This document shows, in pieces, positions 1-4,212 of a stretch of DNA of 64,000 nt. The stretch is from a virus. Made by a program: the position numbers and the translations under genes. The stretch covers positions 1 to 64,000 of IMG/VR virus record IMGVR_UViG_3300025276_000024. The stretch is one strand, 5' to 3'. The notes under the pieces were generated by a model that worked only from the letters and a program-made list of their open reading frames with translations, searched no databases and was not told where the DNA came from. How positions within the stretch are numbered: the stretch's first letter is position 1; each line of letters starts with the position of its first letter.

Positions 1-551
1 GCTTTAATTAGTGGTAGACACTAGAGTGATCAATCCCTAGTGTCATTGTAGTCATAAGATATACCGCCAAGTGTTACTACTTAAACCAAACCTTGACACG
101 GTGTAATAAATGAGTTTAGATTACTGTAAGTTCTCTCTTACGCCAACAGCTTATTGGATAGACTCAACCATATTTAGAGTGGTATTTAATCCGTTGCCAC
201 TATTTATTAAGATTACGGGTAATATGTCTATTATCCTATAGAGGAAGAGACAAAGACTACCCTTGTTGTATTGTTGTGTGTATTTGTTACTCTTGTAGTA
301 ACGTTAGCTATATTTATATTATTAGTAACACTCATAGTTACAAGAGTGGTAAAAGGTGGTATTTTGTGGGTATATGACCTCCCACTCAGTGTGACACACC
401 TAAATAAAATAAAATAACCACAATAATTATAGTTATTAGTAACATTCCTGACTATATGTAACAATAGTTAGAAGTTATTAGTTTGTTTAAGTAACATATT
501 CCACAATGGCTCTCATTGTTTAGGAATATGCTACATTAAACCTGCTAAACA

Positions 552-582
552 TAGTTAGGGAGCAGACGTGCTGAAAAGCACG
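552..582 (-). promoter_or_regulatory. Hairpin-motif repeat, copy 1 (candidate virion RNAP promoter)
   Basis: Plus strand TAGTTAGGGAGCAGA (552-566) + CGTGCT-GAAA-AGCACG; same architecture at 1138 and 1397. The repeat is seen directly; function is inferred. Confidence 0.6.
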
Positions 583-599
583 CCTACAGCCAGACTAGA

Positions 600-1061
600 T
601 TATGCAGTTACAGTCTCCTCCTTGAAGGCCTGCAAGCTCTCTACTGCTTCACCAGTTGAGTTTGCCTCACGAATCTGAGCACCATTTGTGTGTTTCACAA
701 AGGTAGATTGCTCATTGAGGTCATAAACAAGCTCAGTAGTTCTATATATTGCATCATCTCCTGCCATACATACTACGCCTGTGTTACCAGCATACTTAAG
801 ACCATAGGTCAAGTCAGCCTCATTAAGAGGTAGAATTGATTCTTTGACCACAATCTTACCAACAATAGGCTTTGTTAAGTCCATAGAGTTAAGAAGGTCC
901 ATTGGGCCCATTACTAATGCTGACAGAGTCTTATCTGCAAACCAGCCATTCTTGAGCTCAGTTGCCTTTTGCTCAAAGATGATGTATCCTATCTCAGGAT
1001 TCTTGGTCTTGTTGATTGATACTCCTTTGTCATTTACACGTACTGTTACTAAGTTATTCAT
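600..1061 (-). CDS. Conserved Bacteroidota-phage early protein, possibly ssDNA-binding
   Basis: 153 aa ATG..TAA ORF with A-rich leader. Motifs NPEIGYI, SALVMG, GKIVVKES, KYAGNTG..C...IYR resemble a family I recall from crAss-like phages; acidic C-tail. SSB role is inference. Confidence 0.7.
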   Translation of the reverse strand: MNNLVTVRVNDKGVSINKTKNPEIGYIIFEQKATELKNGWFADKTLSALVMGPMDLLNSMDLTKPIVGKIVVKESILPLNEADLTYGLKYAGNTGVVCMAGDDAIYRTTELVYDLNEQSTFVKHTNGAQIREANSTGEAVESLQAFKEETVTA

Positions 1062-1137
1062 AATAAAATTAATTTTGATTAAGACTGTGGTAATACAATC
1101 TCTGAAAGTTTATAAGCACAATTACCTGTGCATTTAA

Positions 1138-1169
1138 TAATTAGGGAGCAGATGCATTGAAAAATGCAT
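1138..1169 (-). promoter_or_regulatory. Hairpin-motif repeat, copy 2
   Basis: TAATTAGGGAGCAGA (1138-1152) + TGCATT-GAAA-AATGCA; 76 nt upstream of the 600..1061 start. Confidence 0.6.
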
Positions 1170-1396
1170 TATGTGTAGCATGCTGTGTTAGTATATATAC
1201 TAGTAATGAACACAAAACAAATCAATGATGTGTTGATATTTAGTAGTTACCTACGTTGACACAGTAGCACTACACTACTCCACACTGATAGATATGCATA
1301 GCCTATCTTTCTTTTTTTTAGATAGACACATTGCATTATCCTACAGTCACAGCCGTGTCCTCACAAAACATGAGGGGGTACCACCGCTGCAAAAAA

Positions 1397-1428
1397 TAAT
1401 TGGGGAGCAGATCATTAGAACCTATTGA
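1397..1428 (-). promoter_or_regulatory. Hairpin-motif repeat, copy 3
   Basis: TAATTGGGGAGCAGA (1397-1411) + TCATTA-GAACC-TATTGA (one T.T mismatch); GAA at the same offset as copies 1-2. Confidence 0.5.
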
Positions 1429-1571
1429 GCACGCAAAACACATAACTTTTGGGAGGGGCAGACTAAAAATTTATATCAGGTGGGGGGCATGTTGTGATAA
1501 AAAAATTTTCATAGGATTTAGAAATTTAGTATATTGTCTTTATAGAAGAGTTACTAACTTAATATTATAAC

Positions 1572-1889
1572 ATGGCTGAATGGGATGACAATAACGAAGC
1601 AGAAGGTTTATCTGAGGTACAACAAATGCAGTTAGATGAAATTTTACTTGACACAGCATATAACAATGCGTGGATGTTATTGTCCGGTGAACTTACATTT
1701 GATGAATTAATGATGACACAGTTTAAAACTGGAAAAGAATTAATAATGGCTTTTGATCCTGACAATGGTCCAAAGGAGGCCGAATTTCAGAACATGATAG
1801 ATTATTATGTTGAACATGAAGAATATGAAAAGTGTGCTAGATTAAGAGACTTAATGGTAGTGGCTTTTCCAAATATATATGAAGCATAA
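1572..1889 (+). CDS. Acidic protein with C-terminal UVR (UvrB/C-type) coiled-coil motif
   Basis: EHEEYEKCARLRD matches the UVR-domain pattern; first gene of the plus-strand block. Confidence 0.7.
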   Translation: MAEWDDNNEAEGLSEVQQMQLDEILLDTAYNNAWMLLSGELTFDELMMTQFKTGKELIMAFDPDNGPKEAEFQNMIDYYVEHEEYEKCARLRDLMVVAFPNIYEA

Positions 1890-1894
1890 ATATT

Positions 1895-2089
1895 ATGGCA
1901 GCTAAAAAGAAAAAGAGTACAGTAAATAGCAGTGGGAATTATACTAAACCCGGAATGCGTAAAAGGTTATTTAACTCAATAAAGGCTGGTAGTAAAGGTG
2001 GAGGCGCTGGACAATGGTCAGCTCGTAAAGCTCAAATGCTAGCTAAGAAATACAAAGCAAACGGAGGCGGATATAAAACTAAAAAATAA
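1895..2089 (+). CDS. Small basic protein, DUF5872-like N-terminal half
   Basis: NYTKP..IKAGSKGG..GQWSARKAQMLAKKYK..GGGY signature; Lys-rich. Confidence 0.8.
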   Translation: MAAKKKKSTVNSSGNYTKPGMRKRLFNSIKAGSKGGGAGQWSARKAQMLAKKYKANGGGYKTKK

Positions 2090-2093
2090 AATT

Positions 2094-2261
2094 ATGAAAG
2101 GCGTAAAACATTATTTAAAAAACGGAACTGAATGGAAAGGTGCTAGTCACAAAATGTCTAATGGTAAAATGCATACTGGTAAGACACATACTAAAACTAG
2201 CAAGCCCTTAGTTCACATGAAAGACTTATCTAAAACAGCTAAGGCTAAAGCTAAGAAGTAA
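2094..2261 (+). CDS. 55-aa His/Lys-rich protein (not in ORF track)
   Basis: MKGVKHYLKNGTEWKGASHKMSNGKMHTGKTHTKTSKPLVHMKDLSKTAKAKAKK; attATG start, TAATG coupling to next ORF. Confidence 0.8.
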   Translation: MKGVKHYLKNGTEWKGASHKMSNGKMHTGKTHTKTSKPLVHMKDLSKTAKAKAKK

Positions 2262-2377
2262 TGGCACTTAAAAAGCGTAAAAAGAAAACACCTTGCTGGT
2301 CAGGCTACACTAAAAAGGGCATGAAGAAAAAGGGAAATAAAATGGTAAACAATTGTGTACCTAAAAAGAGAAAGTAA
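2261..2377 (+). CDS. 38-aa basic peptide with PCWxGY..GMKKK..NCVP motif (not in ORF track)
   Basis: MALKKRKKKTPCWSGYTKKGMKKKGNKMVNNCVPKKRK; TAATG overlaps at both ends. Confidence 0.8.
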   Translation: MALKKRKKKTPCWSGYTKKGMKKKGNKMVNNCVPKKRK

Positions 2378-2619
2378 TGGCTAAGACTAAACAGCAAAAA
2401 AGTCTAACTAGGTGGACTAAACAAAAATGGACAACTGCATCAGGCAAAAAAAGTTCTGAGACAGGTGAAGTTTATGCTCCTAAGAAAACTATTGCTAAGT
2501 TAAAGAGTACTAAAAAAGGTAAAGCTAAACTAGCTGCAGCAAATAAAAAGAAAAGAGCAGCAACAAAGAAAGGTAAACAACATGCTAAGCATGGGCTACA
2601 TAAAGGAAAAAAACGTTAA
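2377..2619 (+). CDS. Small basic protein, DUF5872-like C-terminal half
   Basis: QKSLTRWTKQKWTT..GKKSSETGE.YAPK..AANKKKRAATKKGKQ; extremely Lys-rich. Confidence 0.75.
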   Translation: MAKTKQQKSLTRWTKQKWTTASGKKSSETGEVYAPKKTIAKLKSTKKGKAKLAAANKKKRAATKKGKQHAKHGLHKGKKR

Positions 2620-2634
2620 TTTAAAAATAAAAAA

Positions 2635-3279
2635 ATGAGTACAATATTACAAGACATGATGGGCATGTTAAAAAGAAGTGGTACAGTTATTCCTAAAGCG
2701 GATAACTATATTACAGTTGCTAGGTTTCCAAACCCACAAGAAAGATTGAAGCCGGCACCTAAGTTACAAACAGAATTAGTTACACTATCTTCGTTAAAGA
2801 CATTCTTTAATGCAGGATCTTCAGATGAGTATGTTAATGCAGCAAATTTTGATGGAGCCACAGATATATTAACTCTAACTAGAGTAGGAGGAACTGCTAT
2901 TACAGTAGACATGGACCGTAAGGACACTAAAGAATTTGTAAACTTTATTGCACTTACTGTTAATGGTGGATCTAATACAGTAATAAATACTAGCTCAAAA
3001 GGTCAATTATTTGTTGTTAGAAGAATAGGGTCAGATGGAACAGGAACACTTCAGTTACCTCCGGCAGCTGGAACAGAGAATTGGAGATACAGAAAAATAA
3101 CTATTTTAACTGATGGTACTACTACAGCATCAAAAACAGTTACACTTGATCCACAAGGAGTAGAAAGAATTAATGGTGCAGCTAGTTTTGTATTAGATAA
3201 AACATATGCATCAGTAACAATTTGGTCTGATGGTGCTAATTGGTTTATACTTTCATCATCTCAAGTAGCTGACTTATAA
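2635..3279 (+). CDS. Putative head/tail fibre-like structural protein
   Basis: Shares the 'F....ILTLTR.G...TVD' module with the fibres at 23970 and 27395; C-terminal LQLPPAA..INGAAS..SVTIWSDGANW fibre-type module. Confidence 0.6.
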   Translation: MSTILQDMMGMLKRSGTVIPKADNYITVARFPNPQERLKPAPKLQTELVTLSSLKTFFNAGSSDEYVNAANFDGATDILTLTRVGGTAITVDMDRKDTKEFVNFIALTVNGGSNTVINTSSKGQLFVVRRIGSDGTGTLQLPPAAGTENWRYRKITILTDGTTTASKTVTLDPQGVERINGAASFVLDKTYASVTIWSDGANWFILSSSQVADL

Positions 3280-3569
3280 TGGCACAGAAAAAAGATGGTA
3301 GATTAGCAAGGGCTGGAGTTTCTGGATTTAATAAACCTAAGAGAACTCCGTCCCACCCTAAAAAATCACACGTAGTTGTTGCTAAGGTGGGTGACAAAGT
3401 AAAGACTATTAGATTTGGTGAGCAAGGTGCTAGTACAGCTGGTAAACCTAAATCAGGTGAGTCAGCTAAAATGAAAGCTAAAAGAAAATCCTTTAAAGCT
3501 AGACATGGAAAAAATATTAAGAAAGGTAAGATGTCTGCAGCTTATTGGGCAGATAAAGTAAAATGGTAG
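3279..3569 (+). CDS. Small basic phage protein (KPKRTPSHP..IRFG..SFKARH..AYWA family)
   Basis: Recognisable marine-phage family pattern; TAATG-coupled. Confidence 0.75.
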   Translation: MAQKKDGRLARAGVSGFNKPKRTPSHPKKSHVVVAKVGDKVKTIRFGEQGASTAGKPKSGESAKMKAKRKSFKARHGKNIKKGKMSAAYWADKVKW

Positions 3570-3572
3570 ATT

Positions 3573-3821
3573 ATGACGGTAGCACAATTAAAAGAATTAG
3601 GGTTTACTAAACTTGGGCATGATGAAGATAATGACTTTCCAGAAAATTATTATTATTATACAATTGAGTTTGGTGATCTAATATTTCATTCATGTGGCAA
3701 TGATGAGGCAGAAGAAGAAGGTGGATGGTTTATAATAGATCCAGGATACTCAATTAAAATATGGCACTTTTCGGATGCCAAGATTTTAATAGACTTACTT
3801 AGGCGTAATCAAACATCTTAA
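3573..3821 (+). CDS. Hypothetical protein
   Basis: 82 aa, attATG start, acidic/aromatic. Confidence 0.7.
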   Translation: MTVAQLKELGFTKLGHDEDNDFPENYYYYTIEFGDLIFHSCGNDEAEEEGGWFIIDPGYSIKIWHFSDAKILIDLLRRNQTS

Positions 3822-3860
3822 AATAAATCATTAAACTTTTTTTATTTAAACTATTTTTAT

Positions 3861-3868
3861 TACTTTTG
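3861..3868 (+). promoter_or_regulatory. Bacteroidota sigma-A -7 element (TAnnTTTG)
   Basis: TACTTTTG in an intergenic gap 26 nt before ATG 3895. Confidence 0.55.
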
Positions 3869-3894
3869 TTTTTATTAACACTAAAAACATTATA

Positions 3895-4212
3895 ATGTCA
3901 AATTCAAAAACCAATCCGGAACTTCAAAACAAAGATCCTCAAAAAGAGATGTCTAAAAAAGAGATGTCTGAACGTAGAGAAGAAATAACTACATTCTACA
4001 AAGACAACATTCCTCATTTAGAAGTACAAGCTGATTATGAAACATTATTAGCTGCTATTGAAAAAGCTAGAGCAGAACGTATGCAAGCACAAATGTATAT
4101 GGCTCAACAATATGCTGCACAAAAAGGTGAAGGTGTCCCAGACCCAAATTCAAAAGAAGGGAAAGATTTTCAAGAAGCAATGTCAAAAGCCATGTCTAAT
4201 GAAACAAGTTAA
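3895..4212 (+). CDS. Hypothetical coiled-coil protein
   Basis: 105 aa, helical heptad character (LEVQADYETLLAAIEKARAER). Confidence 0.75.
   Translation: MSNSKTNPELQNKDPQKEMSKKEMSERREEITTFYKDNIPHLEVQADYETLLAAIEKARAERMQAQMYMAQQYAAQKGEGVPDPNSKEGKDFQEAMSKAMSNETS

Follow-up and report, generated by a model that had tools for sequence, protein, structure and literature searches.

The locus

The window considered here comprises the first 64 kb (64,000 nucleotides, nt) of a 114,829-bp IMG/VR record rated complete, IMGVR_UViG_3300025276_000024, with a GC content of 32.6%. Near its left end lie three direct copies of a 22-nt motif, two of them flanked by small hairpins, and these copies, regarded below as probable early promoters, are the subject of this report. 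This uncultured marine phage is a distant crAss-like one, since its terminase and portal match crAss PHROGs, the relatives of the terminase among cultured phages are Crassvirales only (~24% identity), and a 4639-amino acid (aa) open reading frame (ORF) at 58787-72706 contains the DFDID motif of the crAss virion RNA polymerase (RNAP).

The genome is organized in two arms. The + arm extends from 1572 to ~81 kb and carries the structural genes and virion cargo. The minus arm comprises 81142-113974 plus a lone gene at 600-1061, covers most of the remaining genome, and encodes a ribonucleotide reductase, a GroEL-like protein, an SF2 helicase, and a DUF2201/VWA protein. Because positions 1-210 recur at 114598-114807 with 98.6% identity, as an imperfect repeat near both contig ends, the record closes on itself, and the motif locus is therefore the gene-poor zone of arm divergence, at the head of the minus arm. 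By analogy, this arm corresponds to the early, rifampicin-resistant arm of phage phi14:2. The only convincing ORF in 1-1570 is a 153-aa gene on the minus strand (600-1061), to which no function is assigned; the + arm opens with a 105-aa gene (1572-1889, + strand) that served as an anchor for finding relatives.

Three copies of one motif

An initial annotation of this DNA described three elements at 552, 1138, and 1397, each composed of a repeated sequence and a hairpin. The sequence repeat is found as described in all three places, and hairpins are found at the first two but not at the third (see below). The repeated 15-mers are TAGTTAGGGAGCAGA (552-566), TAATTAGGGAGCAGA (1138-1152), and TAATTGGGGAGCAGA (1397-1411). 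Their shared part, GGGAGCAGA, occurs exactly three times in the window as well as in the whole record, always on the + strand and within 850 nt, for a chance expectation of ~0.17 copies on both strands (our own arithmetic, at a GC fraction of 0.326); the reversed pattern, used as a control, is absent from both window and record. With one mismatch allowed, nine occurrences are found for 7.1 expected, and since this is no excess, only the three exact copies are counted.

Read on the minus strand, the repeat extends to 22 nt and ends with a conserved G. Copy 1 (545-566) reads TCTGCTCCC-TAA-CT-ATGTTT-AG with its final G at 545, copy 2 (1131-1152) reads TCTGCTCCC-TAA-TT-ATTAAA-TG with its final G at 1131, and copy 3 (1390-1411) reads TCTGCTCCC-CAA-TT-ATTTTT-TG with its final G at 1390; the copies are spaced by 586 and 259 nt. 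A 23-nt weight matrix built from relatives only scores them at 23.7, 22.7, and 25.5 bits, respectively, the next best site of the genome reaching 16.9 bits and the maxima of shuffled sequences 8-13 bits. All three are oriented into the minus-strand genes, as the initial annotation had stated, the minus strand being that of the early, replicative arm.

On balance, these elements are probably copies of a single strand-specific 22-nt early promoter of the minus arm. Each copy would start leftward transcription at its final G or a few nt after it. Copy 3 would start a non-coding leader of ~330 nt, copy 2 precedes the 153-aa gene, whose ATG lies 82 nt from the core and 69 nt from the final G, and copy 1 would start a conserved non-coding RNA. 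The reader of the motif would be the injected two-barrel virion RNAP, i.e., the 4639-aa DFDID protein.

A strand-specific unit in the relatives

Relatives were found in three ways: by scanning for the motif pattern, through the 105-aa first gene of the + arm, and through the 153-aa protein in metagenome contigs. The 105-aa anchor gene yielded 80 loci, all oriented alike. The scan of viral contigs with a 16-mer pattern also returned 80 loci, mostly chance single matches, from which real relatives were chosen by the presence of multiple copies. A pattern incorporating the hairpin spacing, TTAGGGAGCAGA-N6-GAAA, retrieved from the viral contigs only those resembling G001, plus chance matches. The 153-aa protein alone found nothing in viral contigs; an alignment query of it found three loci in metagenome contigs, one of them useful (L189). 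The G001-like and L189 lineages carry the same three copies at nearly equal spacing.

The conserved unit on the minus strand is 5'-TCTGCTCCC-YWM-CT-N6-TG-3'. In the alignment of 68 distinct copies, (T)CTGCTCCC and the YWM triplet are followed by C (92%), T (92%), six mostly A/T positions, T (82%), and G (95%). These last four conserved positions lie outside the search pattern, and their conservation is therefore independent support for the unit. The strand bias is pronounced: across 300 kb of related DNA (38 non-redundant loci), the + strand carries 70 of the 72 occurrences of the core GGGAGCA[GA] and the opposite strand the remaining two, whereas the reversed core is absent. Five large relatives, four of them 94-100% complete, have strand counts of 2/0, 0/2, 0/2, 0/5, and 4/0, with none for the control, and their copies extend up to ~12 kb into the early arm. 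The pattern persists in lineages where the anchor protein is just 35-55% identical. In the most distant loci (L151-L179), which may not share this architecture, a search for private repeated 10-mers revealed nothing clear.

Position relative to genes is likewise constrained. Of 72 core copies, 68 are on the early-arm side of the anchor gene, and the 67 upstream copies (64 of them in relatives) are all intergenic with respect to large ORFs, a few overlapping ORFs of 47-67 aa. The next early-arm ATG on the minus strand is found at 38-88 nt in 43 of 58 cases; the remaining distances mostly belong to tandem copies 165-180 nt apart or to non-coding stretches at the head of the arm. In every relative found, the first late-arm gene is preceded by an equivalent of copy 3, at a distance of 138-194 nt (mostly 166-181 nt). 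The initial annotation expected further copies only in the early arm; those of the relatives share the orientation seen here and, where mapped, that arm, usually upstream of an early-arm ORF.

Hairpins beside the copies

Hairpin 1 (567-582) is formed by CGTGCT-GAAA-AGCACG and hairpin 2 (1153-1168) by TGCATT-GAAA-AATGCA, each with a 6-bp stem (7 bp in hairpin 2 when A1152 pairs with T1169) and a GAAA loop on the + strand. Their folding energies are -9.2 kcal/mol (z -3.7) and -6.2 kcal/mol (z -3.9), respectively. Orthologous stems in two other lineages, among them the hairpin 1 orthologs of L097 and L189, covary (GCCTGT/ACAGGC, GGCATT/AATGCC, CGTGCAT/ATGCACG, AGGCATT/AATGCCT): over both hairpins and three lineages, all 36 pair cells are paired, 13 of them changed on both sides, a result matched by none of 500 shuffles. 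All six loops are GNRA on the + strand (four GAAA, two GGAA).

The third hairpin of the initial annotation, TCATTA-GAACC-TATTGA (1412-1428), is neither significant nor conserved: the TCATTA/TATTGA stem has an internal T.T mismatch, -1.6 kcal/mol, and a z of -0.17. No hairpin is found at the copy 3 orthologs of the G001-like and L189 lineages, nor beside ~60 copies from other relatives. The earlier claim that the stems differ yet pair, with conserved structure, therefore holds for copies 1 and 2 and fails for copy 3, and the covariation it called for exists in three lineages for these two hairpins, most copies having none. By comparative sequence analysis, hairpins 1 and 2 are real selected structures but, because copy 3 and all other relatives' copies lack one, they are a clade-specific adjunct outside the conserved unit. 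They are positioned about 22-37 nt upstream of the conserved final G.

The role of the hairpins may be of two kinds. They may, perhaps more probably, end or insulate the preceding transcription unit, as a terminator or 3' stabilizer. Hairpin 1 does sit 17 nt after the stop codon (600-602) of the 153-aa gene, and its stem can add five pairs (G.U, G-C, A-U, G.U, G-C) that run through the core and form only as minus-strand RNA, in all three lineages; both points were correctly described in the initial annotation, and together with the abundant RNA ends nearby (see next section) they would suit this role. Alternatively, they may act as template-strand DNA hairpins aiding promoter opening. The six GNRA loops on the + strand would suit such a DNA hairpin, as in phage N4, or a + strand RNA.

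RNA cover at the locus

RNA data come from four marine metatranscriptome runs of a single study (P1), in the form of assembled contigs; the RNA-free parts of positions 1-4000 serve only as an internal contrast and not as proof of silence. A further run, X5, from a second study, matched in 6% of words and does not enter this comparison. The deepest contigs cover 613-1378 in run X1 (depth 24), 594-1341 in X2 (24.7), 662-1377 in X3 (21.7), and 617-1380 in X4 (11.8). Their right edges in three of the four runs agree within 3 nt, at 10-13 nt beyond G1390, with which copy 3 ends. Almost no RNA is found to the right of copy 3, the depth being 0-1.2 in 1475-1608 and mostly 0-6 over the + arm genes. 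That cover is so uneven within 100 nt argues for RNA rather than DNA carry-over.

On the left, these contigs stop short of hairpin 1 by 12-35 nt (80 nt in X3), where the 153-aa gene has its stop codon. Cover is interrupted over hairpin 1 and copy 1 in three runs and resumes at lower depth downstream of copy 1 (X1 210-527, X3 253-434, X4 201-428); X2 reads through, with a contig over 201-621. The X1 contig edge at 527 lies 18 nt beyond G545, where copy 1 ends, and no ORF is present in the 201-527 stretch, which contains blocks identical in three lineages. In the simplest reading of the contigs, a minus-strand unit runs from copy 3 through the 330-nt leader and the gene, mostly ending near hairpin 1, and a second, non-coding unit would start at copy 1.

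A further indication of the start site comes from the stem-loop GCACA-GGTAAT-TGTGC (1116-1131, minus strand), which begins at the conserved G of copy 2 and has covarying orthologs (GCGTA..TACGT, GAGTA..TACTC). Stem-loops whose first base is the conserved G occur in several lineages, and G.U pairs make them more stable when folded as minus-strand RNA. Taken with the nearby contig edges, they suggest that transcription begins at the conserved G or immediately after it, in which case the motif would cover about -21 to +1 and the hairpins about -37 to -22. In a folding comparison of both strands for the element after the proximal copy, the + strand was more stable in 23 of 26 cases, mostly by 1-2 kcal/mol; because this near-constant gap looks like a loop-bonus effect, the comparison was not used as strand evidence.

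Comparison with known promoter systems

The early promoters P1-P3 of phage N4 are read by an injected virion RNAP, for which a hairpin centered at -11 is the recognition element (PMC4496689). Each N4-type promoter has a hairpin of 5-7 bp with a 3-nt loop on the template strand and a conserved sequence from about -17 to +1; they are located on the DNA end entering first, and hairpin extrusion needs negative supercoiling and single-stranded DNA-binding protein. The present elements resemble them in their number (about three copies at the head of the first-expressed genes), in a short conserved block that would end at the start site, in a reader that is probably particle-borne, and in the small stable template-strand hairpins with G..A-closed loops of two copies. 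They differ in that the hairpin, found at -11 in every N4 promoter, is here absent from most copies, lies near -30, and has 4-nt loops. Furthermore, the N4 enzyme is T7-like whereas the enzyme here is a two-barrel DFDID protein, and the promoter sequences are unrelated.

A closer parallel for the enzyme is Thermus phage P23-45, whose two-barrel virion RNAP gp96 reads AT-rich pre-early promoters (10.1101/2022.12.01.518664). The present elements would share with these a conserved motif no more than ~30 nt ahead of the earliest transcripts, a link to a single-chain virion RNAP of the two-barrel type, retention of the motif in relatives with the enzyme, and independence from a hairpin. The P23-45 motif is, however, AT-rich and unrelated in sequence to the C-rich core found here, and its link to the polymerase comes from ONT-cappable-seq and ChIP-seq, as opposed to inference in the present case. 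In our phage the 22-nt block is common to all copies and relatives, and the start is bracketed only by contig ends 10-13 nt past the final G. The elements appear to work in the manner of the phage-specific early promoters of N4 or P23-45, but they are not members of the N4 family, two defining features of which are wanting: a hairpin at -11 in every promoter and a T7-like enzyme.

In phi14:2, the early arm is read by the injected, rifampicin-resistant gp66, which in vitro is active only on single-stranded or denatured DNA, and two long intergenic regions at the head of this arm are transcribed above most genes (10.1101/2020.03.07.982082). Both phages have two opposed arms, and the present one would also share the early replicative arm and the long non-coding head regions highly transcribed in the early direction. 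They differ in that no shared motif was detected ahead of the early transcripts of phi14:2, and the terminase of the present phage is only distantly similar to those of cultured Crassvirales. A repeat search in the first 6 kb of phi14:2 identified AT-rich pre-ATG repeats only and no motif comparable to this one.

A last parallel is offered by the PeSL cassettes of T4-type phages, which combine a sigma-70-like early promoter with a proven stem-loop terminator between small early genes (PMC2839356). Here too, a stem-loop stands directly beside a repeated candidate early promoter and boxes small early units, and the gene cargo between the repeats varies among relatives, recalling PeSL shuffling: it is the 153-aa gene in G000 and G001, a 109-aa ORF after the proximal copy in most relatives, and four genes in G002. 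In contrast to PeSL, the promoter is not host-like, the stem-loop accompanies only two of three copies (in three lineages), and its terminator role is putative. The contig ends close to hairpin 1 hint at PeSL-type termination, yet the contigs run through hairpin 2.

Candidate early promoters and their reader

The motif is unlike host promoters, heads a gp66-type early arm, and has a two-barrel precedent in P23-45, and for these reasons we infer, by analogy, that the virion RNAP is the favored reader. A more tentative joint reading, to which we give somewhat less than an even chance, takes TCTGCTCCC-N3-CT-N6-TG as the native promoter of the crAss two-barrel virion RNAP with its start at the final G, the optional upstream template-strand GNRA hairpin helping an enzyme that prefers single strands to open double-stranded DNA. 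When the N-terminal 1738 aa of the 4639-aa protein were compared with cultured phages by tblastn, no match was found. A search of the genome for TROVE (PF05731) found none; the same holds for T7-like RNAP (PF00940), a search whose control was likewise silent and which is therefore uninformative.

Several points weigh against the early-promoter interpretation. Many of the relatives are close kin, so that the counts overstate the number of independent events. The RNA contigs, assembled and from one study, give neither strand nor exact 5' ends; copy 2 lies inside a contig and is a putative start only. These contigs would also be accounted for by a + strand RNA running between copies 1 and 3, although this is less likely because copy 3 would then be inactive, the transcript would run antisense to a conserved gene, and the distance from motif to early-arm ATG is fixed in relatives. 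The GNRA loops fit a + strand nucleic-acid structure better than a minus-strand RNA terminator. The last nine nt of the motif loosely resemble the Bacteroidetes -7 box. Finally, no common motif was found upstream of the early transcripts of phi14:2 (10.1101/2020.03.07.982082), in agreement with the statement of the initial annotation that no defined promoter is known for its virion RNAP.

The resemblance to the -7 box keeps the host RNAP, with or without a phage factor, as a live if unlikely rival. The motif copies would then be promoters for a primary or alternative sigma, perhaps with a phage factor binding CTGCTCCC, and their T-rich stretch and TG would form a variant -7 box. The Bacteroidetes primary-sigma consensus has a -33 TTTG and a -7 TAnnTTTG, the TTTG being ~19 nt upstream of the -7 box. 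Among the 68 aligned copies, TTG ends the motif in 33 and TAnnnTTTG in 11, the contig edges near copy 3 stand at a plausible distance from a -7 box, and a similar-looking TATATTG box precedes the first late gene in all relatives. Against this, the exact TAnnTTTG ends at the conserved G in only one of the 68 copies, no conserved TTTG is found upstream of the core in their alignment, and TTTG-N17-21-TAnnTTTG has no match on the minus strand of positions 1-1700. Nothing in the host consensus corresponds to CTGCTCCC-N3-CT, the best-conserved stretch of the motif, and an immediate-early promoter that needs a phage activator requires that activator to be injected.

Recognition of the N4 style, as favored by the initial annotation, would have the virion RNAP recognize a template-strand GNA/GNRA DNA hairpin and start ~11 nt from the loop center, within TCTGCTCCC. 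The hairpins of copies 1 and 2 are selected for pairing, the + strand carrying all six GNRA loops is the template strand of the early arm, and phi14:2 gp66, like the N4 enzyme, accepts only single-stranded or denatured DNA as its template in vitro. Nevertheless, copy 3 has an RNA edge but no significant hairpin, the ~60 hairpin-less copies are found in other relatives, the hairpin spans about -37 to -22 from the conserved G instead of -17 to -5, the contigs end beyond the core, 23-31 nt downstream, rather than within it, and the polymerase is of the two-barrel type. Hairpin recognition is not supported as a general mode, and we consider it quite improbable.

No better placed is the alternative, also raised initially, that the elements act at the RNA level as processing sites, operators in 5' untranslated regions, or hairpin-plus-motif terminators, with the promoter elsewhere. 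It gains some support at hairpin 1 only, from its closeness to the stop codon, its G.U extension specific to minus-strand RNA, and the contig ends and gap that surround it in three of the four runs; a processing site would likewise yield a sharp RNA edge at copy 3. However, 1412-1570 is almost RNA-free and contains no other conserved minus-strand promoter candidate upstream of copy 3, most copies have no hairpin, the contig is unbroken at copy 2, and an Rfam scan of positions 1-2000 on both strands, with E up to 1, returned no match. This alternative is doubtful.

Rightward T7-like promoters on the + strand, with a TAnTTn box, a GGGAG start, and a 5' GNRA hairpin, would produce antisense or late-leader RNAs, a very unlikely arrangement. 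The + strand does read TA.TT.|GGGAGCAGA followed by a GNRA hairpin, which resembles GGGAGA starts; copy 3 stands at a fixed ~170 nt before the first late gene with conserved DNA in between; and the contigs would begin just after hairpin 1. Yet RNA is almost absent where copy 3 should fire, all distal copies would produce transcripts antisense to early genes, it is from early-arm ATGs that the copies keep a fixed distance, the stem-loops at the conserved G favor minus-strand RNA, and the search for a T7-like RNAP, with its silent control, detected none. Least probable of all are replication or packaging DNA sites (iterons, pac) in the non-coding zone between the arms, for although three direct repeats in a 2.4-kb gene-poor zone beside strongly conserved non-coding blocks, with the 210-nt repeat of the contig ends nearby, would suit them, the copies track ORF starts and their spacings, up to 12 kb in relatives, are unlike those of iterons.

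Neighbouring genes and non-coding stretches

The 153-aa protein between copies 1 and 2 has homologs in the same place in G001 (50% identical) and L189 (49% identical), and no match in Pfam or PHROG. Window positions 1176-1373, within the leader, cannot be aligned with G001. In most relatives, a conserved 109-aa early ORF is found 63-74 nt downstream of the proximal copy; ahead of it, a stem that encloses a G-run covaries (GTGG/CCAC, GAGG/CCTC, GCGG/CCGC). This ORF is missing from G000 and G001, where a non-coding leader takes its place. In L106, L111, L115, and L144, a short non-coding unit with the conserved start TACTGGGAATGCATCCTGGGGAAGCAA, a candidate small early RNA of that clade, lies between tandem copies spaced by 165-180 nt, at about -610 to -1090 from the anchor gene.

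The stretch 200-545 contains a 27-nt block, TACTAATAATATAAATATAGCTAACGT, identical in three lineages although the adjoining 153-aa protein is only ~50% identical. The stretch may give rise to a conserved non-coding RNA of the early phase, or it may serve as a DNA site (origin or packaging). In 1340-1571, ~215 nt before the first late-arm gene are conserved at the nucleotide level in relatives whose protein is only 45-60% identical. This stretch harbors four + strand G-tracts (about 1375, 1401, 1455, and 1483) and blocks such as ATGCCAAAYACAYAATTTT and TTTTTTAATCAGGTGGGGG, and RNA cover over it is near zero. Its TATATTG box, which lies ~35 nt ahead of the ATG, resembles the host -7 element. On the conserved 170-nt stretch that separates copy 3 from the first late gene, RNAalifold gave only a weak consensus for the two strands (-16.8 and -15.1) and no convincing fold.

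Beyond the anchor gene, 1895-2435 encodes small lysine-rich + arm proteins, and its DNA is ~72-79% identical to hypothetical genes of Pelagibacter, Methylophilales, and Roseobacter phages, which suggests exchange among marine phages of different hosts. At the other end of the locus, the repeat at 114598-114807 is followed by 22 bases that differ from those after position 210, and RNA contigs of three runs carry this alternative continuation as loose ends at position 210, so that both junctions exist in the community; they may be strain variants or reflect a repeat at the genome ends.

Significance

The crAss-like phages are among the most abundant phages known. To our knowledge, each of them injects a giant two-barrel RNAP; the single biochemical study detected activity on single-stranded DNA alone and no promoter motif. 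No publication was found in which this motif is described or an early promoter of a crAss-like phage defined. If the interpretation is true, the motif would be the first defined promoter for the class of crAss-type two-barrel virion RNAPs, with natural hairpin-bearing and hairpin-less versions. The candidate promoter would offer a precisely defined template on which to transcribe in vitro and to examine structurally how such an enzyme finds and opens DNA, accompanied by natural variants with and without the hairpin and by an environmental RNA edge beside the motif. As the phage is uncultured, in vivo work needs a cultured relative or the recombinant enzyme. For the phage itself, the motif would mark the earliest transcription units, which here, as in phi14:2, appear to be largely non-coding RNAs.

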